Positions 1,471 through 62,336 of a stretch of DNA of 64,000 nucleotides are shown here, in pieces. Position numbers and translations under genes: made by a program. Below the pieces are notes generated by a model. It was not told where the DNA came from. It made no database searches and saw only the letters and a program-made list of their open reading frames with translations. The first letter of the stretch is position 1. Each line of letters begins with the position of its first letter. The stretch covers positions 93,808,001 through 93,872,000 of the forward strand of contig NC_086108.1 in assembly GCF_963921235.1 (NCBI RefSeq). The letters run 5' to 3'. Source of the stretch: Mobula hypostoma (taxonomy: Eukaryota).

Positions 1471-3591
1471 TAAAAAAGTACCAACGTCCCAGAGGTGCCT
1501 CCTCCCTCATCTGTGACTATTCTCCCACTCCTCTCTTCACTCACTGTAGGCCCTGGGCTCCTCAGGAAGAGGTGGGAGGGGGATACGGGAGGGGGGAGAG
1601 GGACGCAGGTCATATGAAGAGGAAGCAAGTTCTGATCCAATCTATGGAGAACAAAGCCACTGCCCTCACCACCCTGGTCTACTGGCAATCTCCTCTGATT
1701 CCAGTCCCAGTGGGCATACCATATCAGTGCTTCCTTACAACATAGAAGGAAGCCATTCGGCCCATCGAGTGTGTGCTAGCACATGGTGCAACCACATTCC
1801 CCACTACTGTATTTATCCTTGTAAGCTCTTCACCCCTCGTTTCATTAACTCCCTGTCAGGTTCGATCACTAACTTTCTCACCAGGGCCCCAGCCCACCCT
1901 CTGGGCTGTGAATGGGGACAGAAGCAAACAGGGATATCCACGATGTTTATCACAGGGAGAATGTGCAAGCACCACACAGACTGGATTGAACCTGAGTTGT
2001 TGAAGCTGAAAGGTAGCAGCAACCTTCACCCTCTCTCCTGGTTTATATCCCTCCTGTCTTTGAGGAAAGACCATAAGATACAAGAGCAGAATTAGGCTAT
2101 GTGGTCCATCGAGTCTGCTCCACCATTTCATAATCTCCTGCCTTCTCCCCGTATCCCTTCATACCCTGACCAATCAAGAATCTATCGACCTCTGCCTTAA
2201 ATATACAGCCTCTTGGCCTCCACAGCTGCTGGTGGCAAAGAATTCCACAGATTCACCACTGTCTGACTAAAGAAATTCCTCTCATCTCCGTTCTAAAAGG
2301 ACCCCCTTCTATTCTCTATTCTGAGGCCATGTCCTCTGATCTTAGACTCTCCTACCATAGGAAATATCCTCTCCACATTCACTCTATCAAGTTCTATCCA
2401 TCATCCAAATCACTGACATGTAACATAAAAGAATCAGTCACAACACAAATCCCTGTGGAATGCCACTAGTCACTGGCAGCTAGCCAGAAAATGTTCCCTT
2501 TATTCCCACTGTTTGCCTCCTGCCAATCAGCCACGCTTTATCCATGCTAGAATCTTTCCTGTAATACCATGAGCTCTTAACTTGTTTAGCAGCCTCATGT
2601 GTGGCACGTTGTCAAAGACCTTCTGAAAATCCAAGTACACAGCATTAACTGATTCTCTTTTGTCTATCCTGCTTATTATTCCTTCAGAGAATTCCCACGG
2701 ATTTGTCAGGCAAGATTTTCCCTTGAGGAAACCATGCTGACTAAGGGCTATTTTATCATGTGCCTCCAAATACCCTGAGACCTCATCCTTAATAATCAAC
2801 TCCAACATCTTCCCAACCACTGAGATAAGACTAACCGGCCTATAGTTTCTTTTCTTCTGCCTTTCTCCCTTCTTGAAGAGTGGAGTGACATTTGCAATTT
2901 TCCAGTCTTCTGGAACCATTCCAGAATCTAGTGATTCTTGAGAGATCATTACTAATGACTCTATGATCTCTTTAGCCACATCTTTCAGAACTCTGGGGTG
3001 TACAACATCTGGTCCAGGTAATTTATCTACCTTCAGACCTTTCAGTTTCCCAAGAACCTTCTCTCTAGTTATAGTAACTTCACACACTTCATGCCCCCTG
3101 ACACCAGGAATTTCCACCATACTACTAGTGTCTTCCACAGTGAAGACTGAAGAGCTTCAGTTCATCCACCATTTCCTTGTCCCCCATTACAACCTCTCCA
3201 ACATCGTTTTCTAACAGTCCGATATCCACTCTCAGCTTTCTTTTGCACTTTTAGTATCCTCTTTAATATTATTGACTAGCTTACTTTCATATTCCATCTT
3301 TACCTTCTTAAAGACTTTTTTAGTTGCCTTCTATTGGTTTTAAAAGCTTCCCAATCCTCAAACCTCCCACTAATTTTCACTCTATTATCTGCCCTCTCTC
3401 CAGCTTTTATGTTGGCTTTGACTTCTGATGTTAGCCACAGTTGTGTCATCTTTCCTTTAGAATACTTCTTCCTCTTTGGGATATTTGGCATACGCTTTCC
3501 AAATTGCTTCCAGAAATTCTAGCCTTTATTGCTCTGCCATCATCCTTGCCAGTGTTCTTTTCCAATCAATTATGACCAACTCCTCACTCAC

Positions 3592-4462
3592 TGAATTGAA
3601 TTGAATTGACCTTATTTCTTATATCCTTCACATACATGAGGAGTAAAAATCTTTACATTACGTCTTTATCTAAATGGACAATGTGCAATCATAGTAATTT
3701 ATAATAATTTAAAATAAATAGAACAGTCAATGTAATATAGAGTACACTCAAATCAGCATGAGTTCATCAGTCTGATGGCCTGGTGGAAGAAGCTGTCCCA
3801 GAGCCTGTTGATCTTGGCTTTTATGCTGTGGTACCGCTTCCCAGATGGTAGCAGCTGGAATAGATTGGGATGGTTTGGGTCCCCAATAATCCCACGTGCC
3901 CTTTTTACACACCTGTCCTTGTAAATGTCCTGAATCATGGGAAGTTCACAACTACAGATGCGCTGGACTGTCCACATCACTCTCTGTAGAGTCTTGTGAT
4001 TAAGGGAGATACAGTTCCCATACCAGGCAGTGATGCAGCCACGAACACGAGGAATTCTGCAGATGCTGGAAATTCAAGCAACACACATCAAAGTTGCTGG
4101 TGAACACAGCAGGCCAGGCAGCATCTCTAGGAGGAGGTACATTCAATGTTTCAGGCCGAGACCCTTCGTCAGGACTAACTGGATGCAGCCAGTCAGGATG
4201 CTCTCAGTTGTGACCCCGTGGAAAGTCTTAGGATTTGGGGCCCATACCAAACTTCTTCAACCGTCTGAGGTGAAAGAGGCACTGTTGTGCCTTTTTCACC
4301 ACACAGCTGGTGTGTCCAGACCACGTGAGGTCCTCGGTGATGTGGATGCTGAGGAATTAAAAGCTGTTTACCCTCTCAACCCCAGATCCATTGATGTCAA
4401 TAGGGGTTAGCCCATCTCCATTCCTCCTGTAATCCGCAACCAGCTCCTTTGTTTTTGCGACA
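3592..4462 (-). mobile_element. Rex1/Babar-type LINE 3' fragment nested in CR1
   Basis: ORF 3753-3980 encodes LPMIQDIYKDRC...DPNHPNLFQLLPSGKRY...SFFHQAIRLMN; (tgaat)n tail at 3592-3608. Confidence 0.8.
4042..4181 (-). mobile_element. 140-bp PLE terminal insertion with degenerate hammerhead
   Basis: Flanked by 10-bp TSD gatgcagcca (4032-4041, 4182-4191). Begins cagttagtcCTGACGAagg on the minus strand. Confidence 0.85.
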
Positions 4463-5764: not shown

Positions 5765-8044
5765 GTCAGTCAGTCAGTGGGTGCTGTCCCGAATCCAGGG
5801 TTGGCGGCTATGCACCTCCATCTTCTTCGATCTCGCGTTCTTTTTCTGGCCTCAGCATAACTCACCCCAGTCCGTTGCCTCACATTATCGTACCAAGTGG
5901 TTCACTGCCTTCCTCTTTCCCTCTCTCCTTCTATCATCCCTTCCAATAACAATTTCTGCAGTCCACCACCTCTTAACAAGTGCCCGGCATATTCCAGCTT
6001 CCTTTTCTGCACATTGTTCAGCAACTCCTTTTCTCCCCTCACTCTCTTCAACACTTCCATATTACTGACCTTCATCACCCATCTAATGTTCTGCATTCTC
6101 CTTAAACACCACATTTCAAAAGCCTCCAGTCGTTGTTGCGCTTCCTTGCATGAGGTCCACGATTCGACTCCATACAACAGACTGCTCCAGACGTAGCATT
6201 TCCAAATTCTACAACGCAGCCCAAAGTCCAACCTGTTGCCACACAGAACGTCACTCAGGCTCCAGAACCTTGATCTTGCAATCTCAATTCCTCATCTAAT
6301 TTCTGTATCACATTTCCCATCCTCTGTGACCATCTGTCCCAAGTACACAAACTTCTTGACTTGCTCAATGCCCATGCCATTAATTTTGATACTGATTTTG
6401 AGAACTTCTTTTTCCGTGATACCACCATCATCTTTGTCTTTGCAGCATTTATTTTCATTCCAAATCGTTCACCTTCAGCATTTATCTCATCTACTATTCT
6501 GAGTAACTCGTCCTCAATCTCAGCTAACAACACTGAATCATCTGCATAGCTCAAGCTGTTCACTAGATACTGTCGTTCACCAGATACTCAAGTTGTTCCC
6601 CAGAACTTCAGGTTGTTCTGGGGATACTGGAAGGAGACAAATTGACTATATTGCAGTGAGGAAACGCTTCAGGAGAAGTATTAGGATGGCCAAGACTTAT
6701 CCAGGCGCCGATATAGGCTCGGATCACAACTCGGTGGTTGTTAGGGTGAAGATTGCACTAAAGACAAAGATTAAGGCTGCAACCAAGAAAGCCAGGCTGG
6801 ATATGGACTTACTGAAGAAGAGCGAGTATAGTGAAAGATTTTCTGCAGCGGTGTAAAACAGGTTTAAAGGACTGAGAGTAGAAGACATGGAGCAGACACC
6901 AGATAACATGTGGTCAAACCTGAAGGACTGTATGCAAATGGCAGCTGAAGAATGTCTCCCCAAAAGAAGGCGCGTAGCTAAACAAGCCTGCATGACGGAT
7001 CACATTCTGAAGCTCATGGAAGAGAGAAGGAAGCACAAGAAGGACACATCTAAGTACAAGGAATTGGACCAACAAATAAGAGCAGAATGTGCAAAAGCTA
7101 AAGGACAACGGTTTATCCAACAGTGTGAAAAGATAAAGACCATGGACATGTTACATCATTCAAGGGACATGCACAGGGAGACTGCAGAGATGACCAACAG
7201 GAACAAGAAACAATCAAGGACTGGCATTATTCAAGACAAGGACGGGAACATACTCTTTGAGAATGACAAGGTGGAAAGTAGATGGATGGAATACATTAGG
7301 GAATTGTACTACGATGCTAGAAATGATCAAGTGAGTGAGAAGAACACGGAAGGTACGGAAATTTTGGTAGTGGAAGTAAGAGCAGCCATTGGAAAGTTAA
7401 AAACTGGTAAAGCTTGTGGTGTAGATGGTATTACAGCCAAAATGTTGAAATGTCTTGGCGACTCGGAGGTTGAGGAGATCACGAGGCTTTGCAATACAAT
7501 CTACTCAACAGAAAAGTGGCCAACAGATTTTGTGGTGTCAGAGTTTGTCATGATCCCAAAGAAAAGTAAGAGCACAAAATGCTCAGACTTTAGAACTATA
7601 AGTCTTATAAGTCATGCCTCCAAGATCTTGTTATTAACACATCTAAGCAGAATAAAAAGGACAGTTCTTAATGAAATTAATGAGTGCCAGAGCGGATTTA
7701 TACCGGGTAAGGGTACCCGTGAAGGGGTTTTCAATTTGTGAATGATTGTGGAACGAGGTCTAGAAAAAAAAAAGACATTTACATCTGCTTCCTGGATTAC
7801 GAAAAAGCTTTTGACCGAGTCAGTCATGAACAGATGGACAATTGCCTGAACTCATTGGGGCTGGATGGGAAAGATGTTTGACTGATTGCGAGTCTGTACT
7901 GGCATCAGAAGGCAGTAATAAGAACTAGTGATGGGAATTCACCGGAAGTTGAGATCCGAAAAGGGGTTCGCCAGGGCTACATTATCCCCCCTTTATTATT
8001 TAACATTTACTCAGAGGTAATCTTCAGGGTGTTGAACAATGAAG
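5765..8044 (-). mobile_element. RTE-clade (BovB-related) LINE with inverted 5' segment
   Basis: Minus segment 5765-6580 encodes SYADD through LLYGVESWT...LEAFEMWCLRRM and ends in an (actg)n tail. Plus segment ~6590-8044 encodes QIDYI...FRTISLISHASKILL...GVRQG...LFNIYSE. TSD ctgg[t/c]tgttca (5754-5764, 8045-8055). Confidence 0.88.
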
Positions 8045-11985: not shown

Positions 11986-14900
11986 GGAAGCAGAAAGCCT
12001 TGCAAAGGCCATGCGCTTGCTGTAAAGGTTACGAAAGCAGAAAATCATACAAACAAACACACAGCAGGTCAGGGGATGTGTGGAAATAAAAGCAATTGCC
12101 AAGGCTGAAAATCCAGTTTTCTATCAGATTTCTGCAGTGCTTCTGATTTCCATTGTCATGAAGGTGAGAGAGTCAGAAGGAGGATGTGTTTCACTGAAGA
12201 TAGTTTGTAGTAATCCTACGGGGTTTCATGCTGTGTGGGAGAACAAAACATTGCAAGGTAACCAATATGCATGCGAGCCAGGCATTGCTTAACAGCGGGG
12301 CTGTATAGATTAGCTGAGGTAGGTTTCAGTGAGACGAGCTGACCCACTCCAGAGGGTCCTTGCTAGCTGGGTGTACAGCAGTGGGATGCGTCACCTCGGT
12401 AGGGATAGGGAAAGGAGTGAGGGGTAGTTACGTAATGGTGAGGTTTTATCGTCGATACTGTATAGCATAAGATTGCCAGCAGGTGGATCCCTTCCCAAGA
12501 ATCAGAATCAGGTTTATTATCACTGACATAGGTCACGAAACTTGTTGTTTGTGACAGCAGAACACTGCATACATAAAATATACCATAAGTTCCTTACAGA
12601 AATATATATATATCTGTACTGTATACTTCATTTAAATGTTTATAATTTTATAATTTATTTATTAATATAATTTAGGGTATACACATATCTACTGTATAGT
12701 ATATATACAGTACAGATATAAAATTAAATAAATAGTGCAAAAACAGTGATAAATTGTGAGATAGTGTACATGGGTTCATTGTCCATTCAGAAATCTGCTG
12801 GTGGATGGGTAGAAGCTGTTCCTAAAACATTGACTGTGAGTCTTCAGGCTCCTGTACCTCCACCCTGATGGTAGCAATGAGAAGAGGGCACGTCCTGGGT
12901 GATGGGGTCCTTAAAGATGAATGCTGCCTTTTTGAGGCATTGCCTTTTGAAGATAATCTCGAAGGTGCAGAGGCTAGTGCCCACGATGGAAGCTGGCTGC
13001 GTTTAAAAGCACTCTGCAGCTTTTTTCTGATCCCAAAAGCTAGTTGGCAAGGCCCGAATGTGAGTGCAAGCCCCTGTGGAACTGAAAAGGTCTGTGTGCT
13101 CTCGCCCAGGAGGGTAGGTGAGACCACCATCTAGAAACTCCCGTCTAGGTCCTGATTTGGAAATTTATCCAACTCCCTTCCTAACGGTTCATCACCACCC
13201 TCCCAAGGGCAATTATTGATGGTAGGTGGACACTGGCCTTGACAGTAGTGCCCACATCCCACAGATGGGTGCCACGGTAGCTATTACAGCTGGGAGCATT
13301 CTGGAGTTCAGAGTCCAGAGTTCAATTGTGGTGCTGTTTTGCAAGGAATCCCTGTACGTCCTCCCTGTGGAATGTCTGGGTTTTCCCCGGCTGCTCTGGT
13401 TTCCTCCCACAGTCCAAAGACGTTCTGGGTAGGTTAATTGGCCATTGTCAGCGCCAATGACCCAGTTCAGTTCCACCACTGTCTGTCACAAGTTTGTACT
13501 TTCCGTCCATGACCGTGTGTAGGTTTCCTGCAGTTGCTGCAGTTTGCTCCCACATTCCGAAGACGTAAGGGTTAGTTGGTCACAATGGATATAATCCAGC
13601 AGCACAGACTGGTCAGGCCAGAAGGGCCCGTTACCATGTTGTATCTTCAAATACAAATGGAAGTCTATGGAGGGGGGATGCCTGACCAGCATTTTGTGTG
13701 CGTTGCTCAAGATCTCCAGCACCCGCACAATCATTTGTGTCTCTGATGCACTGCATCAACTGTTCTTTTATTATACAGGGTCTGAAAACTGGAATCATCA
13801 CCCCACCTGCACGGGCAGATAACCTTCACCAGAAGGACTATAGCAGGTCAAGAAGGCAACTGACAACAACCTTCTCATGGGCAATTAGCGATGGGATCAA
13901 ATTTATTAACCATATACATTTACATCTATTGGGAATTTGCTCTGTCCTGCAACAAATAAAAACATTCAACAAGTATACAAATAAAGAATTATGTATAAAA
14001 GTTCAAAATAAATTTATTATCGAAGCACCTATATGTCACAATATGCAACCTTGAGATTTGTAAATTCATATATGTCACCATATATAACCCCGAGATTTGA
14101 AATTTAACCTCTAAAATGAATTGAGGTTAAATTACAGATATGAATTAAAATGTGCATAAATACATAAATACCATCAAATATTTACAATATGAACATAGAA
14201 ACATAGAAAACCAACAGCACAATACAGGCCCTTCGGCCCACAAAGCTGTGCCGAACATGTCCTTACCTTAGAAATTACCTGGGGTTACCAATAGCCCTCT
14301 AATTTTCTGATTTCCATGTACCTGTCCAGGAGTCTCTTAAAAGACCCTATCGTATCCACCCCTACCACCATCACCGGCAGCCCATTCCACGCATAAAAAA
14401 ACTTATTCCTGACATGTCCCCTGTACCTCCCTCCAAGCACCTTAAAACTGCCCTCTCGTGCTAGCCATTTCAGCCCTGGGAAAAAAGCTTCTGACTATCC
14501 ACACGATCAATGCAGCGTTATAAAAAGTGGTTTGCTGTGTTTACAGAGCAGTACTGAGATAATGGAAGGGGGTTGGGGGACTAACTAGAATGGTTGATCA
14601 GATTAACTATCTGGGGGGAAAAACTTTGAAGCTGGCATAAGGCATTTATGTTAATAGCCCTATAGTGCTTTCTGGAAGGGAGCTTTTGGAAAGGCTCTTG
14701 TCTGGATGGGTAGTGTCCACAATGATTATTCCTGCCCGCTTCTTTGTCCTGGGCTCATACCAGTCCTGCAGTGAAGGTAGACTACAGTGAATGACCTTTC
14801 CCGCCATCCTGACAGTTTGTTGTAGTTTTTGTGTATCGTGAGGGGATGCTGTACCAAACCAGACAGTCATGGCTGATGTGAGGATACTCTTTGTGAAGGT

Positions 14901-16291
14901 AGTGCGGAATGGCACCAGTATGTTCTGGGGGAGATGGAATAGGCAATAAATTCTGCCTCGGTGGCAACGTCCAGATCCTGAAAATGAAATAAAAGAATTC
15001 AAGGGTGACTTTAGACGGCAAATTGGACCTCGCTCTTTCAAAGATTTGGGCTGCTGTTATTTTGGCAAGGGATCTGAGTGGGGTCTGATTTGCCCCGACG
15101 CACTGGACGGGGATTGAAACTGTCGCTCACTCCATATTAGTGTTAGCCCCGTGATCAGGATCACATCCACCGGCCGCTGAACATGCCGTCACAAGCAGAT
15201 TCTTTCAGCAGAGCACATTTCTGAGATTCCAGAACTATTAAGGTAGATAAACAGAGCGTGTTATCTGCAAGTCAGTAAGGCACCACATGCAATCCCTTCA
15301 TCTGACTCTGTAAAAGGAAACCGGGTTCTTGCCCTCGCCCAGTGAAGTAAGTTGCGTGCCAGTGGCAGTGAAACTGTGGCGTCTTCGCATCAGTCAGAAA
15401 CCTGCCAGTACTGGGAATCTGAAAAGAAGTGTTTCTAGAACTTGCTTCAATGCTCAAGCTTTGATTCTATCTGCCTCGGCTCAAATAAAGGAGATTTACG
15501 CAACTAGGACGGATTGGAGGATATCACTACGCCCACACCTCCTACAATCGCTCCTCTGCGGATCGTCACCTCGCCATTGTGGAGAGGCTTGTGGGTTCCT
15601 GACATCCCGAGAGCGATGCCCTCCGGGGTTTAGCCGCCTGGAGCTTAGCTCCAAGTCGGGTTACCCACAGGGGCATTCCACAGGTGAGGCTGGAGGAAGA
15701 TGACGGCACACCACAACGACAGTGAAAATGCAGGAAGGCTGCAGCAGTGAAGAATCCCCAGTCATCGTGCACCCTGTGCCACTAGACCCTGACCCCAAAC
15801 TGTCAAACACTTTGTGGTGGCTGCCCCTGGATCAGCCTCCCCATGTTAAATAAAACCAGCCACAGGCGTTCTCCTCTGAGGGAGTAACCCTTGGGAGAAC
15901 ATCCGTACTTAACTCGAGAGGTCGCACATCTACAACCAGAAACACCAGTGATGGCCAAAGTAGAATTAGAAAAGCACAGAAGGCGGCTATTTGGCCCATG
16001 GATAATGTGCTGGCCTTTTAAAGAGCTTCTCATGTAGTTCCTCTCTCCTTCCCTTTCCTACATTTTGGAATGTTCTTCTCTTCAGCCATTACCGATTCCC
16101 TTTTGAAACTTGCTATTCGATGTTCCCCAAATCCACTTCAATGGAACGCACTTTCAGAGTGAGGGTAGAGGCAGATACATTAAGCAGATTTAGGAGACTC
16201 TTAGATAGACACGTGGATGAAAGAAATATGGGGGGGAATAAACAGTCGAACTCTAGGGCCGAGACTCAGCCCAAAACATGACTCATTATTC

Positions 16292-18035
16292 AACACTCAC
16301 AACACGCTGGAGGAACTCAGCAGGTCGGGCAGCATCCGTGGAAACGATGAGTCGCCGTTTCGGGTCGGAACCCTTCGTCAGGACTGAAGAGGGAAGGGGC
16401 AGAGGCCTTATAAAGAAGGTGGGGGAGGGGAGGGTTGGAAGGAGAAGGCTGGTAGGTTCAGTTGAAAAACCAGTAATTTGAAAGACAAAGGGGTGGAGGA
16501 GGGGAAGCAGGGAGGTGATAGGCAGGAAAACAATGGGTAGTAGAAGGAGGTGGAATCATGAGGGAGGTGATAGGCAGCTGGCGGAGGGGGTAAAGTGAAA
16601 TAGGGATAGAGGAAGGGAAGGGGAGGGAATTACCCGAAGTTGGAGAATTCTATATTCATACCAAGTGGCTGGAGACTACCTAGACGGTATATGAGGTGTT
16701 GCTCCTCCAACCTGAGTTTAGCCTCATCATGGCAGTAGAGGAGGCCATGTATGGACATACCTAAATGGGAATGGGAAGCAGAGTTGAAGTGGGTGGCTAC
16801 CGGGAGATCCTCTCTGTTATGGCGGACCGAGTGGAGGTGCTCGATGAAGCGGTCCCCCAATCTGCGTCAGGTTTCACTGATATCTCGGACACTTCTCTCT
16901 TCTTTCTCGATGTCTCGGTCTCGATCTCTGGAGACAGACTGTCCACCGACATCTTCTACAAGCCCACTGACTCTTATAACTACCTCAACTATACCTCTTC
17001 CCACCCCGCCACATGCAAAAATGTCATTCCCACAACAGGGACAGAGTTCCCCTTGTCCTCACCTACCACCCCACCAGCCTCCGGATCCAGCACATTATCC
17101 TCCGCAACTTCCGCCACCTACAACAGGACCCCACCACTAAGCACATCTTTCCCTCTCCACCTTCCGCAGGGATCGATCCCTCCACAACTCCTTTATCCAC
17201 ACGTCCCTCCCCACGGATCTCCCACCCGGCACTTATCCCTGTAAGCGTAAGTGCTACACCTTTCCCTACACCTCCTCTCTTGCCACCATTCAGGGCCCCA
17301 AACAGTCCTTCTGGGTGAGGCAACACTTCACTTGAGAGTCTGTTGGGGTCATCTATTGCATCCAGTGCTCCTGGTGCGGCCTCCTCTACATCGGTGAAAC
17401 CCGACGCAGATTGGGGGACCGCTTCGTCGAGCACCTCCGCTCCGTCTGCCACAACAGACAGGATCTCCCAGTAGCCACCCACTTCAACTCTGCTTCCCAC
17501 TCCCATTCAGATATGTCCATACATGGCCTCCTCTACTGCCATGATGAGGCTAAACTCAGGTTGGAGGAGCAACACCTCATATACCATCTAGGTAGTCTCC
17601 AGCCCCTTGGTATGAACATAGAATTCTCCAACTTCCAGTAATTCCCTCCCCCTCCCTTCTCCTATCCCTATTTCACTCTGCCCCCTCCCCCAGCTGCCTA
17701 TCACCTCCCTCATGGTTCCGCCTCCTTCTACTACCTGTTATGTTTTCCCCTATTCTTTCTTCACCTTTCCTGCCTATCACCTCCCTGCCTCCCTTCCCCC
17801 ACTGCTTTATCTTTCCCCTTACTGGTTTTTCAACTGGACCTACCAGCCTTCTCCTTCCCACCCTCCCCCCACCTTCTTTATAGGACCTCTGCCCCTTCCC
17901 TCTACAGTCCTGACGAAGGGTTCCGGCCCGAAACGTCGACTCATCGTTTCCACGGATGCTGCCCGACCTGCTGAGTTCCTCCAGCGTGTTGTGAGTGTTG
18001 CTTTAATCCCAGCATCTGCAGAGCATTTTGTGTTT
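16292..18035 (+). mobile_element. Penelope-like element with inverted pLTR (fold-back) architecture
   Basis: Minus arm 16292-16883 mirrors plus arm 17388-18000. The centre encodes FLDVSVSISGDRLSTDIFYKPTDS and GIY-YIG (VIYCIQCSWCGLLYIGET). 14-bp TSD atgactcattattc (16278-16291, 18036-18049). Confidence 0.93.
17906..17941 (+). ncRNA. Minimal type I hammerhead ribozyme motif in PLE pLTR
   Basis: AGTC-CTGACGA-A-GGG-ttccgg-CCC-GAAA-CGTC-GACT: stem I AGTC/GACT, core CUGANGA and GAAA, stem II GGG/CCC, palindromic ACGU in place of stem III, GUC cleavage triplet. Confidence 0.75.
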
Positions 18036-19004
18036 ATGACTCATTATTCCCCTCCGTTGATGCTGTCTGACCTGCTGAGTTCCTCTCGCACTTTGTGCGT
18101 TGCCAAAGATTTCCAGCATCTGCAGAATCTCTGGTGCTTTGGATGAAAGAAATATTGAGGGCTATGTGGAGGAAAGCAGCAGGTTGACCTTGCGGTAGGT
18201 TAAAAGATCGGTACAACACCTTCGAGCTCGACTGAGCGATCTGCTGTCCCTGGAGAGGACCCTGAGCACGGGCTGTCTCACGCAGAAGAACACAGATGAG
18301 GCACAGGGCTGTGATTGACTCGACTTCGAAGCGTCGAGGAAGATCGCAGCATCGGGGCGAATGTGGGGGATGTCAGCGGACACTCTCCACGGAGATCACG
18401 GGTCGATGGCGGTTGGTAGCCAAGACAGCGACACTGCAGTCTCCCTTCGCGGAAGGACTGGGTTCAAGCGGCCACTCTCCTCAGTTCTGGCGGATGGACG
18501 TTTTCGAAATTCTGAGATTTATGTGATTATTGGACTGTAGTTTATATTGCTGTCCCTCAGTTTTCTCTGTTTTCTTTCTTGCTGCTGACTAGTGGGTTGG
18601 GGTTCTGGATGGACGATATGTTGTTTTTTTGCAAGGGAGGGGGTTGGGGGGTCTGGGATTTTTGATATTCTGGCTGCTGTCTTCCATATGGGCGATCTGC
18701 TAGTATTTGTATGAGAGAGGGGTTGGGGGTTTCAAGTTTGGTGTTCCAGCTGACGTTTCAGTTTTTTCGTGTGGGGAAGAGAGTGGTGGGGGAGCTTCCT
18801 AATTCAATCCTAGACAACACCATAACAGAAAACACAATAACAACCTACAATTTACAATACAATAGGGCAAACAACCATGAGCAATTAACTATCGGCAGAA
18901 AGGTCACATGCACAAATGTCAATAATCAAACCTAAGTAAACGTGAACATATGAACAGACTTATCAATAGAAGGAGAGTGGGAGAGTCCATTTAACAGATG
19001 TTGT

Positions 19005-22385: not shown

Positions 22386-23339
22386 TCACACAGCAGGTTT
22401 GAACGCATGTCATCGTACCTTTATCATTCCTCACAACATACAATGAGGCTACTCGGCCCATCGGGTGTCTGCCCTCTCTCAGAGCACTCCGTTTCCCTGT
22501 AACCTAGTCTCTCTCACATGCTTACTAATGCCCTCTCCTCCTGCCATCCACCCACACAATCTTCAGCCACCTTAAGCCTACCAGTCGTGGGGGGGGTGGG
22601 GGCGGGGAACAAGAGAACACAGAAGGAAGCCATAAAGTCACATGGAGAGCACACAAATTCCACAAAGGAGAGATAAAAAGGCAAATACATTGGTTGGGGC
22701 AACTTTAAAGTCGTGATTGGCATTCCCTCATTTAGGTCATTAATATTACCATGAAAAAAGAGCAGATCTCCCAATCCCCATGTCTGGGAGGCTTTGAGGT
22801 AATTGACGTCTTCGGGGTTACTAATTAGTCTTCACTTCATTTGACAACCTTTATTCGGGAACAGCGAATCAGCTGTCGGGGGCTCTGTACTCGGATCGCG
22901 CTCTCTCACTCTCGGTGGGGGAGAGTTTGCTGCCGATTCTTGAGTTGGAGAACGGAAAAAGCAAGGTGGCAGACTTCAACACCGTAAATCAGTGAGTTGT
23001 TTTGCCTATGTCTCCCCTCTCTTTGAGTGACTCCTCTCTGCCCCTTTATTAGGGTGAGAGAGCCTGGGGTTTTTCAAATTGCTGGGTGAACGATCAGTTT
23101 TTGCAGATCATGGTCCTTCTTGGTGGGTGGAGGACAATGATGCTTTTTGCTAAAGTGGGGGAGAGGGAGGGGGAGGGCCAATGCTTTACTGTTGCTTGGG
23201 AGTGGGAGGGGGAAGTAGAGGCATTGGGGGTTCTAATGTTTTTACTGTCACTCATTCTTTAGGGCACTGTTCTGTTTTCATAGATGCCTGTGAAGAACAA
23301 GAATTTCAGGTTGTATAGTGTATACATTCTCTGATATTA

Positions 23340-25710
23340 GACCATAAGACAAAGGAGCACAAGTCGGCCATTCGGCCCATGGAGTCTGCTCTGCCATTTT
23401 ATCATGAGCTGATCCATTCTCCCATTTAGTCCCACTCCCCTGCCTTCTCACCATAACCTTTGATGCCCTGGCTACTCAGAGACCTATCAATCTCTGCCTT
23501 AAATACACCCAATGACTTGGCCTCCACTGCCACCCGTGGCAACAAATTCCACAGATTCACCACCCTCTGACTAAAAAAATTTCTTCACATCTCTGTTCTG
23601 AATGGGCGCCCTTCAATCCTTAGGTCATGCCCTCTCGTACTAGACTCCCCCATCATAGGAAACAACTTTGCCACATCCACTCTGTCCATGCCTTTCAACA
23701 TTCAAAATGTTTCTATGAGGTCTCCCCTCATTCTTCTAAACTCCGAGGAATACAGTCCAAGAGCGGACAAACGTTCCTCATATGTTAACCCTCCCACTCC
23801 TGGAATCATTCTAGTGAATCTTCTCTGTACCCTCTCCAACGTCAGCACATCCTTTCTTAAATAAGGAGACCAACACTGCCCACAGTACTCCAAGTGAGGT
23901 CTCACCAGCGCCTTATAGAGCCTCAACGTCACATCCCTGCTCCTATACTCTACTCCTCTAGAAATGAAAGTCAACATTGCATTCGCCTTCTTCACCAGTG
24001 ACTCAACCTGGAGGTTAACCTTAAGGGTATCCTGTACGAGGACTCCCAAGTCCCATTGCATCTCAGAACTTTGAATTCTCTCCCCATTTAAATAATAGTC
24101 TGCCCATTTATTTCTTCTGCCAAAGTGCATAACCATACACTTTCCAACATTGTATTTCATTTGCCACTTCTTTGCCCATTCTTCCAATCTATCCAAGTCT
24201 CTCTGCAGACTCTCTGTTTCCTCAGCACTACCGGCCTCTCCACCTATCTTCATATCATCAGCAAACTTAGCCACAAAGCCATCTATTCCATAATCCAAAT
24301 CGTTGATGTACAATGTAAAAAGAAGTTGCCCCAACACGGACCCCTGTGGAACACCACTGGTAACCGACAGCCAACTAGAATAGGATCCCTTTATTCTCAC
24401 TCTCTGTTTCCTGCCAATCAGCCAATGCTCTATCCACATATGTAACTTTCCCGTAATTCCATGGGCTCTTATCTTGTTAAGTAGCCTCATGTGTGGCACC
24501 TTGTCAAAGCCCTTCTGAAAATCCAAATATACAACATCCACTGCAAACAACAGGAATACTGCAGATGCTGGAAATTCAAGCAACATACATCAAAGTTGCT
24601 GGTGAATGCAGCAGGCCAAGCAGCATCTATAGGAAGAGGCGCAGTCGACGTTTCAGGCCTCTTCCTATAGATGCTGCTTGGCCTGCTGCGTTCACCAGCA
24701 ACTTTGATGTATGTTGCTTGAACATCCACTGCATCTCCCTTGTCTAGCCTACTTGTAATTTCCTCAAAAAATTGTAATAGGTTTGTCAGGCAGGACTTTC
24801 CCTTAAGGAATCCATGCTGAGTTCTGCCTATCTTGTCATATGCCTCCAGGTACTCTGTAACCTCATCCTTGACAATCGACTCCAACAACTTCCCAACCAC
24901 CGATGTCAAGCTAACAGGTCTATAATTTCCTTTTTGCTTCCTTGCCCACTTCTTAAATAGCGGAGTGACATTTGCAGTCTTCCAGTCCTCCGGAACCATG
25001 CCAGAATCTATCGACTTTTGAAAGCTCATCGCTAATGCCTCCGCAATCTCCACAGCTACTTCCTTCAGAACACGAGGGTGCATTCCATCTGGTCCAGGAA
25101 ATTTATCTACCTTTAGACTATTCAACTTCCTGAGTACTTTCTCTGTCGTAATTGTGACTGCGCACACTTCTCTTCCTTGCCAACCTTGAGTGTCTGGTAT
25201 ACTGCTGATGTCTTCCTCAGTGAAGACTGATGCAAAATACTCGTTCAGTTCCTCTGCCATCTCCTTCTCTCCCATTACAATTTCTCCAGTATCATTTTCT
25301 ATCGGTCCTATATCTACTCTCACCTGTCTTTTACTCTTTATATACTTGAAAAAGCTTTTAGTATCCTCTTTGATATTAATTTCTAGCTTCCTTTCATAGT
25401 TAATCTTTTCCCTCTTAATGACCTTCGTAGTTTCCTTTTGTAAGCTTTTAAAAACTTCCCAATCCTCTGTCTTCCCACTAATTTTTGCTTCCTTGTATGC
25501 CCTCTCCTTTGCTTTAACTTTGGCTTTGACTTCTCTTGTCAGCCACGGTTGCATCCTTTATCCATTCGAAAATTTCTTCTTTTCTGGAATATGCCTGTCT
25601 TGCACCTTCCTCACTTCTCGCATAAACTCCAGCCACTGCTGCTCTGCCGTCCGTCCCACCAGTGTCCCTTTCCAGTCAACTTTGGTCAGTTCCTCTCTCA
25701 TGCCACTATA
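23340..25710 (-). mobile_element. Young 5'-truncated CR1 LINE (RT nearly intact), split by a PLE fold-back
   Basis: ORFs 24487-25554 and 23702-24586 rejoin as DKGDAVDV|VYLDFQKGFDK once the insert is removed. Motifs GVPQGSVLG and FADD are present. Confidence 0.95.
24546..24720. mobile_element. 175-bp PLE terminal fold-back insertion
   Basis: 13-bp TSD aacatccactgca (24533-24545, 24721-24733). Two inverted copies of the pLTR end. Confidence 0.9.
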
Positions 25711-26486
25711 ATTAAATGGAACTGTTGAACTATTGACAACCTTTATTCAAGATATAAATTTATAAAACACTTTTGTGCTCCCTATCAAGTTACCGGCTAA
25801 TCTATCCTCATTTACAGACACAAGAGGATCTGCAGATGCTGGAAATGTTGAGCGACACACACAAAGCACTGTATGAACACGGGCGTCATTCAGTCTTTGA
25901 ATCTCGTATTTCTCTTTCAACTCCGCTCTGTGTTTATGCCTGCCGCTCCACTTTAACACCAGCCTGACATTCATCCAAACCCTATTTTTCTCTTTCATCT
26001 TAATCTTCAAATCTCCATTTATCCATGGAGCTTTAGCTCTGGATGCCCTTCTCAGTAATGAGGCTGGACCCGAACCATCTTATCTTCAAGTGCTTCCCAT
26101 CGCTCATTCTCTGTTTTCCTGCATTTCCTGGGGCTTTGTCTGAATATCAGGTTTCACTGGGTACATCCTCATTGTTAAATTTATACTGAAGGGCAGCTAG
26201 TGGAGGAATCAGTATCCCAGATCCAGGAATTGTCATCGATGTAAAATGGAATGGTGCGAAATAATTTACAGGCTCCCATACCAAACCAGGTTCCCATTGC
26301 ACGGCTTTAGTAAAGTGAATAAGCTTTTCTGCATTAAGAAGACTGATCTAGTAAAAAAGAACATGCGTCTTGACAGGAGGACTTGATAGGAGTCTTGATG
26401 GGAAACAAATGGATAAATTAAAAGCAAGCAATTGTCAAATTATTTTTTAAAAATTCACTAGAACTATTGCTACAGATATGACTTAC

Positions 26487-33222: not shown

Positions 33223-33737
33223 ACTTAATTGAGTTCTTTGTAGTAAAATTTATATATGATTTACATTTTTTTGTGAATGCTGCTTATATGATGTGATGTG
33301 CCTTTGGCACTGCTGCTAGTGAGTTTTACACTGCATCTGTTGCACATATAACAATAATTTGAACTCTTATTTTTATTTTATTTGGAGATTCATCGCAGTA
33401 ACGTGTCCTTCTCGCCCAGGAAGCCCGTGCCACCCACTGCTAACCACACGTCATTGGAATGTGAGAGGAAACTGCGGCACCTGGGGGAAACCGATTGGTC
33501 ACAGGGAGAGCGATGGAAGCCGTTGGGGTGGGGAGGTCCAGGTTTCAGACCAAGTGACATTAGAGGAACAACTGATGCAGGGACACAAGAGATTCTGCAG
33601 GTGCTGGAGATCTTGAGCAACGCACACAAAATGTTGGTCATAGATTGTCATTTTTATTTAGGGATGCAGCACGATAAAAGGCCCTTGTGACCCACAGAGC
33701 TCACACCGCCCAATTACATCCGTGTGACCAATTAACC

Positions 33738-38157: not shown

Positions 38158-38680
38158 TCACACAAAATGCTGGAGGAACTCAGCAGGTCAGGCAGCATCT
38201 ACGGAAATGAACCAGCAGTCGATGTTTCGAGCCGAGACCCTCATCGTGAATGAAAAAGGAGGGGGAAGATGCCAGAATAAAAAGGTGGGGGGGGGGGAGG
38301 AGAATAGCTAGAAGGTGAAAGGTGAAGCCAGGTGGGTTGGAAGGATAAAGGGCTGGAGAAGAAGGAATCTGATAGGAGAGGAGAGTGGAAGATGGGAGAA
38401 AGGGAAGGAGGAGGTGATAGGCAGAGGAGAAGAGGTAAGAGGGCAGAATGGGGAATAGAAGAGAGAGGAGGGGAGCGAAAATTTATTTTACTTGAAGAAG
38501 AAATTGATATTCAGGCCGTCAGATTCCATGCTACCCATACAGAAAATGAGGTTTTGCTCCTCCACGCAGAGGGTGGACTAACGTGTCAGAACGGGAATGG
38601 AATTGGAATTAAAATGTTTGGCCATGGGGAAGTTCTGCTTTAAACAGATGGTAGTGAGGTGCTCGTCCAGGCCGTCATTC
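38158..38680 (-). mobile_element. Degenerate PLE 3' fragment
   Basis: cacacaaaatgctggaggaactcagcagg terminus, decayed hammerhead, purine-rich UTR and GIY-YIG C-terminal remnants. Confidence 0.8.
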
Positions 38681-39243
38681 AACAGAACATCTGTAGAAGT
38701 TGGTCAGAATATTTAGTGGCATGCTGAAAATCTTCAAAGAAGGTAAAGATGCAGGCTCACCTTCCCTGAGATTGCATCAACATGCTGTGCTCAGGACAGG
38801 GCATCTGACGTGTTAACACGCAGGAATTTAAAGCTGCTGGCCCTCGCCATGCCAATCCACCGATGCCCGCCCCCCTCGTCAAAATACATACCTGTTTCCC
38901 TCACGTGCCCAGCAACGCCAGTGAGTTCCAATGCCTTGTTGTTTCATTTTAAAATGTACCAGTGCTTCGACTTTTAAGGTGAGTGGAGGCAGGTGAAGGG
39001 GAGATGTCAGAGGTAGGTTCTATTGCACAGGGTGGTAAGTATCTGGAGTTAGGTAGAGGCCGATACATCAGGGACATTTAACAAATTGGCACATGGATTG
39101 AAGATGAAGGGAGGGTCATGGTCTGTGTAGGAGAGAGGAGTTAGACTGATCATGGAGTAAATCAAAAGGACGACACAAGATCATGGGCTGAAGGACACAC
39201 ACAGTTCGATGTTCCGTGTAATAGAGCAGCGATTATTTACTCA

Positions 39244-39460
39244 AGCAACACACACAAAATGCTGATGGAACTCAGCAGGCCAGGCAGCATCTACAGGAAG
39301 AAGTACAGTTGATGTTTCGGGTCGAGACCCTTCATCAGGATTCCTCAAACCGAAACGTCGACTGTACCTCTTCCTAGAGATGCTGCCTGGCCTGCTGCGT
39401 TCCACCAGCATTTTGTGTGTGTTGCTTGGATTTCCAGCATCTGCAGATTTTCTCGGGTCT
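39244..39460. mobile_element. PLE terminal fold-back insertion
   Basis: Inverted pLTR ends; TSD gattattta[c/t]tca (39231-39243, 39461-39473). Confidence 0.85.
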
Positions 39461-41955: not shown

Positions 41956-43707
41956 GGACAGCCAGATTTGGGAACAGCTTCTTTCCAACTGTGATAAGAC
42001 TGCTGAACAGATCCTGACCCGGATCTGGGCTGTACCCTCCAAATATCCGGACCTGCCTCTCGGTTTTTTTGCACTACCTTACTTTCCAGTTTTCTATTTT
42101 CTATTTATGATTTATAATTTAAATTTTTAATATTTACTAATTTGTACTATTTTTCATATTTTTAATATTTAATATTTGTAATCCAGGGAGCAGGAAGCGC
42201 AGAATCAAATATCACTGTGATGATTGTACGTTCTAGTATCAACTGTTTGGCGACAATAAAGTATAAAGTTTGAAGTATCTCAATAAAGTAAAATAAAATA
42301 AGCATATTGATGTGATTAGAGTTGGTGTTAACATTTCCATAATGTCACTATTGTAATGCGATGATCTGTATGAATGGCATGCAAAACCAAGATTTCTACT
42401 GTACGTCAGTCCATTTGACTATTATAAACCAATTTGATTCCTAGAAAATTTTCTCAGACAAGTGTTAACTTAACATTTCTCCTTCAATTGCCTACTTTCC
42501 TTCTGAGCATCTCCAGTATTTTCCAGCATGTGCCCTGGTGAAGGGTCTTGGCCCGAAACGTCAGCTGTTTACTCCTTTCCATAAATCCTGGTTGACACAA
42601 AGTTTTCTGTCTCGATACAATGACAATAACAAACTAGTTTACCAATGTTGTTCCGAATCTGCCCCCTGTATCTGCACCACTGCCGTTAATAACAGCTCTC
42701 TCTATCTCTGGAAGCATTCCCCGCCCACCTCTCCATCCTACATTCACCTTGTTCTGCCAACTCCTGGTTCTTTTTTTTTTAAAGATTTGCTTTATTTGTC
42801 ACATGTATATCAAAATATCGAAATAGAAAGTGAAACACATCGTTTTGCATCAACAACCAACACAGTCCGAGGAGGTGCTGGGGGCAGCCCACAAGTATAA
42901 TCACACTTGTGGTACCAACGTAACATACGCGCAACTCACCAACCCTAACCCGTACCTCTTTGGAATGTGGGAGGTAACCGGAGAACCCAGAGGAACCCCA
43001 CATGGTCATAGGAAGAACGTACAAACTCCTTACAGACAGCCGCAGGAACTGGACCTGGATCACTGGCACTGTCATAGCGTTACGCTAACCACAGTACCAC
43101 CATGTGCCACGTTCTCTTCTGACTGTACACTCTCAATACAAGCAGGGATCTACTGTCAAAGCCCATCAGAGAGAGGTCATTGTCAGAATCAGCAGACATT
43201 TCCGATTCTGGTACTCAAATGTGCGGCCGCGTCCAGCTGCAGACGGGCGCCAACGGCAGCGACCTTGCCTCAGCGATTTACTCATCGTCGAGATGCTGCT
43301 TCACCCTTGCTGGACACCGAACGCCTCGTCAGCAGGAAACTGCCTCCACGTGGAGCTGCTCTAAAGCCACTTCAGCTGGCTGCCAGTTGGTGAGCCAGAG
43401 TCATGGGAAACGGAGGGATCCCCTTCAATGTGTGTGTTCCAAAGAGTGAGATCAGCCATCACTGATCTCGCAGTCCCCACACATTTCATTTCTGTGCGGA
43501 GTATAAATAGCGGGATGGACCAAAGGGGTATTCCTGTGACCTCTGTCAGTTATTAATAAAATATTCTTGACATCAAGCCACTTAAGATGCAAGCCCTGCT
43601 TCTTTGGGCGCTAGCTCAATGGGCTGACAGTCCAAGGATACTAATGACGAACCATCACCACATTAATAAATTAGCACCTGCACTTGGACAGAAAGAGCAT
43701 TAACTGT

Positions 43708-47080: not shown

Positions 47081-47821
47081 TTTCTTATCTTTATTTTTGC
47101 AAATAAGTTATAGCCTTGAAAAGGTGAGTACATTTGTGTTTGTGTGGGCATAGAGTAAATAAGTGAGTGTCAGCGCATTTGTAAGAGTGCATTATTAAGA
47201 GCACCACAACTTTTCGTAGTTTGGAAGCTTGCATGTCTCAATGACCCAGAGAGCTATGCTGACTGGAGTCAGGGCTTTATGCTTTGGCTCTTGGTAGGGT
47301 CACCCATGTCAAACAGGTCAAAGGGCAGAGGCCAGACTAAGAGTGGCCTACCGGTCCTCCAGGTTCAGGGGTTCAGCTCAGGGCTAACAACCCTGACTGA
47401 TGAAACAAAATTGTTACAGAAACAGCAATGAAGAATCCTCCTACATCTGAGTGTGATGGTATCCCAGGACTTGTATGGCTGACAGTAGTGCAAACCCAGA
47501 GGAAGCTACGGACATGATGAAGGAAGCCCTGAACACTGCCAGAGATGGAGAATGTTCATTGCTGCCCTAAAGACCAATGGCGCAATGGGCAGCTAGGTGT
47601 TTTTAAATATGAGTGTGAAAATAAGTGAGATGGTGCACACAAGTCTGCGGGAATGAGAGGGATGGGCTTAGTAATGAATTCAGACAAAATCAAATCATCA
47701 TTTCAGATGCAGGTTCCATTTCTCTGCTCCCATTAATATCACCACACCACTTTCAGAGGAACTGAAAGAGGACATTAAAGAGTACGTCTGATATGGGTTT
47801 AAAAGGAGGAGGTAAATGAAA

Positions 47822-48012
47822 GCGACACACACAAAATACTGGAGGAACCCAGCAGGCCAGGCAGCATCTATGGAAAAGAGAATAGTCGACGTTTTGGGCC
47901 GAGACCCTTCATTCAGTCGTGATGAAGGGTCTCAGCCCGAAATATCAACTGTATTCTTTTCCTCCAGCATTTTGTGTGCTGCTTGAATTTCCAGCATCTG
48001 CAGATTTTCTTT
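47822..48012. mobile_element. PLE terminal fold-back (older)
   Basis: Two head-to-head decayed hammerhead halves (gacccttcattcag / gtgatgaagggtctc) with pLTR ends on both sides. Confidence 0.75.
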
Positions 48013-50597
48013 TGCTGGAAGTGAATGAAATCTGAGATTCCTATGAAGGTGGAGAAAATTACGAAAAGCTGGAAATGTTGGAATTGTTGAATTTAATGTT
48101 GAGCCCTGAAGGCTGTGAATTGACTCGTCAGCTGCTGTTCCTTTGGTGGAACAGAACAGTACGGGCTGCCAGTGACACAGTGACATGATCTATGTTCCTT
48201 AATTAATTGAGAGTAGTTTAAGATCCAATGCACTTAGTAGAAATTACCTCTCATTCATTTTGATTGAATAAGGAGGTTAGGTTTATTACTCTGAGGAAAA
48301 CAAATTGACTGTACGGTGGGAGGGCATGTTTTGCTGTTGTCCAGTTGTTGCTTGTGTCATTCTGCTGAACATAGTGGGTGGCAAACTGTGCTGGAATGTG
48401 TGCTGACACTTCTGGGCTGTCCTCGGAACAGGCTTAGTTTGTAAATGACACCTTACATTGTGTGTTTTAATGTACAAGTGACAAATAAATGAATCAACAT
48501 TCTGAAATGCTGGATGTTATAAAAGGACTGAGGAGGCTGATGCTCTTGTTGATGTGCAGAGAAAGCCGGCTGGAGTGCTCCAGAAGTAGAAGTGACTGTT
48601 ATCCTTATCCAAGATGGTGGCGATTTAGTTGTTCATTTTTAAACTGGTTTTTTAGGTTCATAAGGCTGGTTTTGGGGACAGAGAGTTTAAAAATAGCTTT
48701 TTTTAGGTTCATAAGGATGGTTTGGGAAGTTTGGGGCAGAGTCCCAGTCTCCACTCCATGTTCAAAGGCCAGTGGTGCAGGCGGGAGACGTCCATGGTTG
48801 GACGCCGGGCCAGCAGGAGGTGGATGAGGGCCCTCCCCCACCCCCACCCCAGGTCGGTGAGTTGTTGGCGGGTTCAAAGTCGGTGCTCCGTATGGGCAGG
48901 AAGAACAGGTTCCGATGACCCTCTGGGTTCGCAGATCGGTGAGAATGGAGTTCGAGGCCAAGTGTTCAGTGATCAGCGTGTCCTGGGATCGATGCTGAGG
49001 ATCGAGCGTGAAGTTTGAATCGAGTCTGGAAGTTGAGACCTTTTGGCCGGAGCCAAGTCTGCAGATCTCCGCAACTCCGCTGAGGATGTCGAAGCACAGT
49101 ACCTGCAGGCCCGGGTCCAAGTCCGCTGGAGGTCTGCTAACGCAAATGGCACATTTCACTGTACGTTTCAATGCAAGCGTCACAAATAAACTTGAATCTT
49201 GAATCACTGTGCAAACATCAGGTCACTTCCAACCATGCTATTTAACCGGAGAGCTCAGAATGAGAAGATGATTCCCTTGCTGAAGTAACATTAAGATGAA
49301 TTTGCTTCAAGTCTGCTAAGCATTTGTCTGATAGCAGCACTTTTCACAGAGAATCAAAGTAAATGGCACAGGAGCATTGAGTTTTTTGGCTGGATTGCAC
49401 CATTGAAATCAGGCTCTGACTTAGAAGTGATGCAAGTGTCAATGAGTTCCCCTTCCCCCAGAGCTGGAAGTGCTCATGAGACGTTTATTGCTGCACTTTC
49501 AGTGCCTGGTGCAAGGCAGCTTTATTGCTTATTTTGTTTCTCCCAATAGCTGCTCCTGCTCATTGGAGAAGTTATTACTTCCCCTTTATTGAAGCCAAAA
49601 GACTATTACAATTGGTGCCATGATCATGTCATTGAAAAATGCTGAACAGTACAGTTCTGTTTGTTCGCCTGAAAGCCGCATATTTCCTCAGGCAGAATCA
49701 GCCTCCCTGATATCCCGACCAAAATCCATTCCTCCGCATGAATGCCTGGGAAGAGTTTATCTGATTATTATCTCCTTGCAGTTGGATATCCTACAATAGT
49801 GACGAGCCTTCAAAAGGCTTCACCAGCTGTAAGCACTGCAGCCATTTGTAAAAGGGCCTAGATAAATGAAATGGTTTTCCTTTCAGATGGGAATTCTCGA
49901 AAAAAAATTGGTAAATTGGTTTATTACTGTCCCATGTACCAAGGTACAGTGAAAACTTGTCTGACGTGTTGCTCATACAACTTTGAGGCAGTACAAAGTA
50001 AAACAGAGTGCAGAACAAAGTGGAAAGGCTGCTGAGAAAGTGCAGTGCACATAGACAGCGTCATAACAAGGTAGATCGCGAGGTCAAGAATCCATACTGA
50101 GCAAAGAAGTGGCAGATGGAACTGTACGGACATGCGCTTTGGTAGACGGAATAATGGCATGGACTATTTCTAAACAGGCAGAAAATTCAAAAATCAGAGG
50201 CGTAAAGGGACATGGGATTCCCAAAAGGTTAACTTGCAGGTTGAGTTGTGATAAGGAAGGCAAATGCAATGTTAGCATTCATTTCGAGAGGACTAGAATA
50301 TAAAAGCAAGGATATAACGCTGAGTCTTTATGAGGCATTCGTCAGATCGCACGTGAAGTATTGTGAGCAGTTTTAGGCTCTTTATCTAAGAAAAGTTGTG
50401 CTGACATTAGAGAGGTCCTGAGTAGATTCACAAGAATGATTCCGAGAATGAAGGGGTTAACATAGGAGGCATTAGGGAACAATTCAATCGTTTTATAATA
50501 GCGGGGTAGAAGCTGCCCTTGAGCCCGGTGGTATGGGCTTTCAAGCTTTTGTATCTTCTGCTTGATGGGAGGGGAAGAAGAGAGAATGTCTGGGATG

Positions 50598-62236: not shown

Positions 62237-62336
62237 GTTAGTCCTGACGAAGGGTCTCGGCCTGAAACGTCGACTGCACCTCTTCCTACAGATGCTGCTT
62301 GGCCTGCTGCGTTCACCAGCAACTTTGATGTGTGTT
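62237..62336 (+). mobile_element. 100-bp PLE-derived insertion consisting of hammerhead plus downstream pLTR
   Basis: 10-bp TSD gcaggtggaa (62227-62236, 62337-62346), inserted in a CR1 RT remnant. Confidence 0.88.
62240..62275 (+). ncRNA. Minimal type I hammerhead ribozyme motif
   Basis: AGTC-CTGACGA-AGG-gtctcgg-CCT-GAAA-CGTC-GACT, identical to the copy at 51358-51393. Confidence 0.75.

Follow-up and report, generated by a model that had tools for sequence, protein, structure and literature searches.

The motif of 36 nucleotides at 17906-17941 is very probably a minimal type I hammerhead sequence from a Penelope-like element with an endonuclease (EN+), which is very abundant, carries the motif in its 3′ pseudo-LTR and likely belongs to the Neptune clade in a ray. 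It would cut only in an active master element, as a dimer or with the help of the element's own protein, and the copies in the window (the whole 64-kb stretch of DNA analysed here) are likely inert. The initial annotation had placed a high-copy minimal type I hammerhead in the termini of Penelope-like elements, and both the letters of the motif and its Penelope context support this.

The motif and its host element

The motif (AGTC-CTGACGA-A, stem II, GAAA-CGTC-GACT) is intact at 17906-17941, 51358-51393 and 62240-62275, all on the forward strand, as had been annotated. The parts of the first copy are given below in the hammerhead numbering convention, as in PMC4209133.

17906-17941, forward strand: intact minimal type I hammerhead motif, subfamily A, recognised from sequence
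17906-17909, forward: stem I, 5′ strand
17910-17916, forward: core CUGACGA (C3 to A9)
17917, forward: extra A between positions 9 and 10.1
17918-17929, forward: stem II (G-C, G-C, G-C, U.G) with a 4-nt loop
17930-17933, forward: GAAA (G12 to A15.1)
17933-17936, forward: ACGU palindrome; C15.2 and G16.2 without a loop, then U16.1
17937, forward: C17, with the predicted cut at 17937/17938
17938-17941, forward: stem I, 3′ strand

The predicted position of C17 agrees with the cut after GUC that had been proposed. Helix I is 4 bp long in the copy at 17906 and 5 bp long at 51358 and 62240. Helix III is replaced in the intact copies by the ACGU palindrome at 15.1-16.1, again as described before.

A strict descriptor (core boxes, a 15.2-16.2 pair, UH, stem I of at least 4 bp and stem II of at least 3 bp) matched three times in the window, against two matches in 200 dinucleotide-preserving shuffles, a chance expectation of about 0.01 strict matches per 64 kb. 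A profile search gave 16 matches at E 1.1e-8 or better, among them the nine window copies from which the profile was built; the best match in the reversed window had an E of 0.15. In total, 17 motif traces in 13 insertions were counted within the 64 kb, where more than ten had been claimed. Three traces are intact and 14 are broken. Three are weak, namely those at 63565 on the forward strand (E 0.012), 16240 on the reverse strand (E 0.19) and 16269 on the forward strand (local alignment only). The decayed copies listed previously are all real; six of them (496, 4141, 16350, 38215, 39305 and 47885) lie on the minus strand, which had gone unstated. The Rfam covariance models found no hammerhead over the whole window at the gathering threshold, and none of the five matches obtained over 15500-19000 with E up to 10 was a hammerhead. 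This is not counted against the hammerhead reading, because these are minimal motifs without helix III.

The copy at 17906 lies in an insertion made of two inverted arms, which itself sits within an older pair of the same kind.

16292-18035, both strands: younger Penelope-like insertion, with a minus arm (16292-16881) and a forward arm (16882-18035)
16882-17641, forward: broken ORF end, with an RT-thumb fragment (16882-17031), a deletion and frameshifts, a zinc-linker remnant and GIY-YIG (17339-17641)
17642-17905, forward: pyrimidine-rich 3′ UTR or pseudo-LTR upstream of the motif
17955-17978, forward: downstream conserved block
18004-18035, forward: optional tail of about 30-35 nt, found on only one arm of each inverted pair
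16350-16385, reverse: motif of the inverted arm, broken by a change of U16.1 to G, with U-A at pair 10.4-11.4
16230-18139: older pair of inverted termini (16230-16277 and 18050-18139), invaded by the younger element and holding two short decayed motif traces

The two arms of the younger insertion are identical at 544/587 positions and match at 34/36 within the motif, about the same divergence as overall. This insertion is flanked by a 14-nt target-site duplication (16278-16291, 18036-18049), and the older pair by one of 16 nt (16214-16229, 18140-18155). The younger inverted copy entered right behind a decayed motif of the older pair, and both duplications were preserved. Its inversion junction (16876-16887) falls on a 6-nt palindrome common to both arms, as expected for microhomology-guided strand switching.

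The GIY-YIG domain (PF01541, E 6.7e-4) scored 20.4 bits, below the curated cut-off of 22.6. It ends at 17641, about 265 nt ahead of the motif, and endonuclease remnants also lie upstream of the motifs at 496, 16350, 38215 and 51358. Relatives of the ORF (46 matches) were headed by ray proteins (Hypanus 89%, Mobula 83%), followed by coral and echinoderm proteins at about 50%. Close relatives encode an RT core (YIDD), a CX4CxxC linker and the endonuclease; the RT core is absent from the window copies. A CX2-5CxxC linker is present in the relatives P0002, P0003 and P0015 and in the DNA near 50650, and the last linker cysteine is changed in the 17906 copy. According to passages of PMC8557442, this linker marks both Neptune and Nematis. 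From sequence, the element is likely an EN+ Penelope-like element of the Neptune clade, an assignment made from the linker alone, which Nematis shares. The host is likely a myliobatiform-like ray. Ray proteins annotated as DIPK1C, mucin-2, ABHD14A, LAMP3 and ULK1 isoforms (P0001, P0004, P0042, P0045, P0046) also contain endonuclease sequence, probably through repeat contamination of gene models or through exonisation.

A pyrimidine tract runs into CAG where stem I begins (17890-17907; 51335-51357) and resembles a 3′ splice site; passages of PMC4209133 place an intron end of the D. virilis Penelope at helix I. Among the joints listed from contigs over 17640-18050, none was a splice joint into the start of stem I. 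A downstream ATG, considered as a candidate ORF start, has by eye an open frame in some copies and one closed after 16 codons in subfamily B.

The other copies in the window are as follows.

51358-51393, forward: intact motif of subfamily B, with U in place of C at 11.1 and a stem I of 5 bp, within an 850-nt 5′-truncated copy (50598-51447) with the GIY-YIG region and a 12-nt target-site duplication
62240-62275, forward: intact motif, subfamily B, within a 100-nt insertion (62237-62336) whose start lies about 3-4 nt upstream of stem I, with a 10-nt target-site duplication
4141-4176, reverse: decayed motif of subfamily B, with breaks in both the palindrome and stem I, within a 140-nt insertion (4042-4181) with a tail and a 10-nt target-site duplication
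496-531, reverse: decayed motif, with G12 changed to C and with T for C at 15.2, carried by a 580-nt copy (433-1012) that reaches the endonuclease end
24546-24720: short inverted pair of subfamily B, the minus arm running from stem II, with the motif's 3′ half kept; a target-site duplication of 13 nt; missing from the earlier list
38215-38250, reverse: decayed motif; the copy that carries it is older and measures about 530 nt (38152 to about 38680)
39240-39460: short inverted pair joined at the motif, part or most of which is kept on both arms; 9-nt target-site duplication
42532-42596, forward: decayed short copy (profile E 1.1e-8)
47816-48013: short inverted pair whose arms meet at the motif and are both decayed, with no convincing target-site duplication
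59932-60014, forward: decayed short copy starting in stem I
63561-63622, forward: very old, weak trace (profile E 0.012)

Target-site duplications of 9-16 nt were found at 7 of the 17 regions tested, compared with 16 of 300 random pairs. Contigs matching 17640-18050 with at least 85% likeness numbered 53,287 and 51,989 in two DNA runs; these counts reflect the diversity of copies and not copy number, and one run may share the window's own source.

Conservation, decay and pairing

Sixteen window copies were aligned and their cells scored against the column majority; the copies are related, so p-values are descriptive and do not represent independent tests. The core (142/155 cells conserved) and the stems (172/195) stand above the spacer behind the motif (118/204) and the upstream flank (137/189). 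However, the downstream block at 17955-17978 (265/294) was no different from the core (Fisher p = 0.73). The expected excess of core over flank conservation is seen against the spacer and the upstream flank, but it disappears against this 24-base block. Conservation alone does not single out catalysis, because the downstream block equals the core. The block is likely a protein-binding or initiation signal; its consensus fold had no supported structure (2 pairs, no covariation; 6 of 11 rows without the tail). Subfamilies A and B are identical at 33/36 positions of the motif, 5/13 of the spacer, 11/36 of the upstream flank (few gaps allowed) and 26/38 downstream. All catalytic letters are retained in both subfamilies whilst the spacer and upstream flank diverge, a contrast which would support selection in the master lineages.

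Decay of the motif is concentrated at CpG, with 35 CpG-type changes in 153 CpG cells compared with 36 other changes in 514 cells; CpG-type changes make up half of all changes in the motif. Among the variants listed from the two DNA runs, C17-to-T accounts for 30-31% of depth and C11.1-to-T for 23% and 16%. A G at 17942 is found in 68-69% of depth in both runs, which extends stem I to 5 bp. A change of T to C at 17941, present in 17-19% of DNA-run depth and in 0/16 window copies, might belong to a subfamily in which stem I is compensated. Depth steps 2.0-fold and 2.4-fold at 17905/17906 in the DNA runs, a step that would agree with 5′ starts at the edge of the motif but is confounded by the divergence of subfamilies upstream. 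In two further runs of uncertain type (X13 and X16; RNA or DNA) the contigs span the motif, and no pile-up of molecule ends was reported.

The extra A after A9 and G10.1 are both invariant (13/13). C11.1, which lies at a CpG, is kept in 10/16 aligned copies and is T in the other 6/16, including 4/4 copies of subfamily B. The change leaves either a G.U pair or, at about the same weak energy, a slipped register (-2.5 vs -2.2 kcal/mol in subfamily B). In subfamily A the register with an unpaired A is predicted to be favoured (-5.1 vs -0.5 kcal/mol). Stem II had been described as varying compatibly between copies (A-GGG/CCC vs AGG/CCT). A closer inspection reveals a one-sided C-to-U change at a CpG and not covariation. 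The slipped register A-U/G-C/G-C was likewise rejected as covariation, being impossible in subfamily A (A.C) and the product of a single CpG change in B. Pair 10.4-11.4 alternates between U.G and U-A, again one-sidedly. Covariation of the stems across copies, which had been suggested as a check, is therefore lacking in the window, where changes are one-sided only, but is present for stem I across 33 distant families.

These families come from a metagenome scan for a pattern modelled on the window motif, with the core and the stem II base fixed and stem I left free. It returned 123 loci from 9 of the 64 parts of the collection. Stem I pairs over at least 4 bp in 48 of 91 distinct flanked motifs, compared with a mean of 8.6 (maximum 19) when partners are shuffled. 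When the motifs were grouped by downstream flank (33 families; 124 motifs), 108/132 stem I cells paired, against 63.9 ± 5.3 (maximum 80) under the partner shuffle and 34, 47 and 43 in slid registers. Each of stem I positions 2-4 shows four or five pair types among the families. A Penelope-type endonuclease end lies within 300 nt of at least 35 of the 123 loci, and none of the 123 resembles the flanks of the window element. Stem I of the window element starts C-G, U-A and that of the metagenome families mostly A-U, C-G, a two-sided change. Judged by this pairing, the motif class is under structural selection and the window motif is a member of it; the covariation is that of organisms other than the ray and does not imply activity in the ray. 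Two of the metagenome loci (L038, L044) have a second motif on the other strand, about 55-60 nt away, the geometry of the inverted pairs in the window, in unrelated organisms.

Predicted activity, insertion ends and alternative readings

The monomer is predicted to fold best as an inactive rod, in which GACG of the core is base-paired to CGUC; the rod reaches -12.5 kcal/mol and the open hammerhead form -8.5 kcal/mol. With z-scores of -0.3 to -0.4, the folding of the monomer is unremarkable. Moreover, a GUCGAC palindrome (17935-17940) spans the cut site, with a predicted duplex of -7.5 kcal/mol compared with -1.7 kcal/mol for ACGU, and may compete with the ACGU dimer. A cut-spanning palindrome of this kind occurs in 0/124 metagenome motifs. 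Since the monomer is predicted to prefer the inactive rod and GUCGAC to form a stronger duplex than ACGU, folding agrees with a need for help. Passages of PMC4209133 report no monomer activity and low dimer activity for minimal hammerheads of Penelope elements, and one of nine Xenopus retrozyme dimers was cleaved according to parts of bioRxiv 10.64898/2026.07.22.740005. In the sections of PMC11167929 on the green anole, the motif cuts only with the element's protein, catalytic mutants insert normally, no RNA reads end at the cut, and insertion from uncut RNA is shown.

The window holds no full-length or tandem master, and no motifs stand head-to-tail among its copies. The window copies are probably inert, because there is no direct tandem, 14/17 traces are broken, and paired arms differ within the motif as they do elsewhere; any function would belong to master elements outside the window. 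With 3/17 traces intact and no direct tandem, the description of a high-copy family of self-cleaving RNA motifs goes too far.

Twenty two arms were examined for where they start, of which 17 reach the cut site. Twelve of these start between -15 and +18 of C3 and five at least 440 nt upstream; none of the 17 starts between -440 and -16, and none at the cut. The other five arms start at +29, +35, +65, +71 and +71, and only the first, a faint old trace, is near the cut (+27/+28). The clustering of starts has p ~1e-13 against a crude uniform null, with 3 of the 12 boundaries weak and several arms sharing an insertion. The simplest reading is that reverse transcription ran off or stalled at the 5′ edge of the motif on uncut RNA. 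At the other end, one arm in each of four inverted pairs stops about 90-99 nt past C3 and its partner 122-128 nt past; passages of PMC11167929 tie a one-end tail of 30-40 nt to two internal RT start sites. Three tiny copies of about 55-65 nt with a tail were also seen (13685-13740, 25818-25881 and 33583-33638). All begin at +65 to +71, where a small hairpin is predicted in the downstream block, and this shared start is possibly a second stop site.

By analogy with published elements, a tandem master element would be transcribed, two ACGU palindromes would pair and so build helix III, and the RNA would be cut after C17, slowly or with the help of a protein. Insertion would be independent of the cut. 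On uncut RNA, reverse transcription likely has two start sites, located about 90 and 125 nt past C3, which would produce the optional tail. It would often halt at the 5′ edge of the motif, resulting in many copies of 100-220 nt and in inverted pairs. The inserted copies would then decay, largely at CpG. A more far-reaching model, which we put forward tentatively as possible and somewhat short of probable, is that the hammerhead is off by default (through the rod and GUCGAC), that its 5′ edge is the start of the template RNA, and that most insertions are run-off copies of 100-220 nt primed internally on uncut RNA. If this is true, the high-copy genome is a natural in vivo record of Penelope priming, stopping and inversion, and also tests whether the ribozyme matters for transposition.

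An alternative is a motif of hammerhead origin that has stopped cutting in this lineage and is retained, along with the downstream block, for its structure or sequence as a signal (promoter, protein-binding site or RT stop). The equal conservation of that block is in its favour, as are the predicted inactive rod and the competing GUCGAC duplex absent from the metagenome motifs, the spread of subfamily B with C11.1 to U in 4/4 copies, the lack of any arm that clearly starts at the cut site, and the normal insertion of catalytic mutants reported in those sections of PMC11167929. However, both subfamilies keep all of the catalytic letters whilst the spacer and upstream flank have diverged. Moreover, stem I is complementary with letters unlike those of other families and has 5 bp in the majority of depth (17942 G, 68-69%), yet a pure DNA or protein signal has no need of a paired stem I. 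We regard such a relic as unlikely, and prefer a hammerhead that would still work in the master elements.

Less probable still is a strong reading of the initial annotation, in which the copies scattered through the genome would themselves be active as self-cleaving RNAs, either by dimerising in trans or by pairing with a neighbouring copy in a host transcript. Three intact motifs in 64 kb and the diversity of copies in the contigs would offer many partners, but most traces are broken, there is no intact direct tandem, and even the two nearest intact motifs are separated by about 10.9 kb. Long hairpins would be expected from inverted pairs, and only -1.7 kcal/mol is predicted for the ACGU duplex. 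Within one insertion the motifs of the two arms have diverged, U16.1 included, to about the same extent as the arms overall (34/36 and 544/587). Least credible of all is a chance resemblance multiplied by repeat amplification. Few masters stand behind all the copies, which leaves one or two independent observations, and Rfam does not score the motif; yet about 0.01 strict matches are expected per 64 kb, the location is that reported for Penelope elements in passages of PMC4209133, with the published extra A and palindrome, and stem I covaries across distant families that share the core. Position and class-level covariation have already largely refuted it.

Relation to known Penelope hammerheads

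Minimal hammerheads (min-HHR) in the pseudo-LTRs of metazoan Penelope elements were described by Cervera and de la Pena (2014, PMC4209133), passages of which report them from fish Xena, Poseidon and Neptune elements, the coelacanth and Xenopus. As described there, they share with the window motif the type I arrangement, the lack of a helix III stem, the palindromic 15.2-16.2, a helix I of 4-5 bp, the unpaired base between 9 and 10.1, and G10.1-C11.1. They also occur mostly as solo copies from truncated elements, with close pairs on opposite strands. By comparison, helix II in the window has 4 bp and a 4-nt loop, whereas the Schistosoma families have 7-8 bp; G10.1-U11.1 in subfamily B and the GUCGAC palindrome across the cut are further differences. 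By its letters and location, the motif matches the metazoan Penelope minimal hammerhead, a kind that has been in print since 2014, in the core boxes, helix I, helix II, the palindrome in place of helix III and the position in a pseudo-LTR. Cartilaginous fish are unnamed in the main-text passages of PMC4209133, and two of its supplementary files name no shark or skate. No paper on Penelope hammerheads of rays was found in a search that was thin on subscription journals and did not extend to Repbase or Dfam entries. What the window contributes is rays as a host lineage and a family of very high abundance; the system itself is not new.

The Poseidon element PAc of the green anole (Frangieh et al. 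2024, PMC11167929), as its sections describe it, likewise has a pseudo-LTR hammerhead upstream of two 3′ end points 30-40 nt apart and copies that do not start at the cut site. Unlike the window element, PAc belongs to the Poseidon clade and its ORF starts within the ribozyme; on a comparison of sequences, the window element differs from it in having a zinc linker. Neptune EN+ elements (Craig et al. 2021, PMC8557442) share with the window element, according to passages of that paper, a C-terminal GIY-YIG, a CX2-5CxxC linker, a pseudo-LTR hammerhead, 5′ truncation, an inverted truncated copy at the 5′ end and a tail at one end. Non-LTR retrozymes, as presented in parts of bioRxiv 10.64898/2026.07.22.740005 and found there in one chondrichthyan, resemble the window units in being short non-coding hammerhead units derived from Penelope pseudo-LTRs. 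However, they form head-to-tail tandem arrays, whereas the window units stand alone or head-to-head, and those for which a target-site duplication was found each have their own. Identity with a tandem non-LTR retrozyme was rejected, there being no direct tandem among the window copies.

Passages of PMC8557442 and PMC11167929 leave the in vivo role of Penelope hammerheads open. The many young and old copies of the ray element allow statistical tests of insertion starts against the cut site and of selection on the catalytic letters in the masters.

About 30% of the window is self-repeated. Outside the self-repeated parts, a stop-free frame of 294 codons at 6857-7741 (forward) had no Pfam match. 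A frameshifted LINE ORF2 with AP endonuclease and RT domains lies at 53549-56435 (forward), and repeated LINE-type RT fragments lie at 2067-3590 and 23335-25700 (both reverse). One such LINE-type RT fragment is interrupted by the inverted Penelope pair at 24546-24720.
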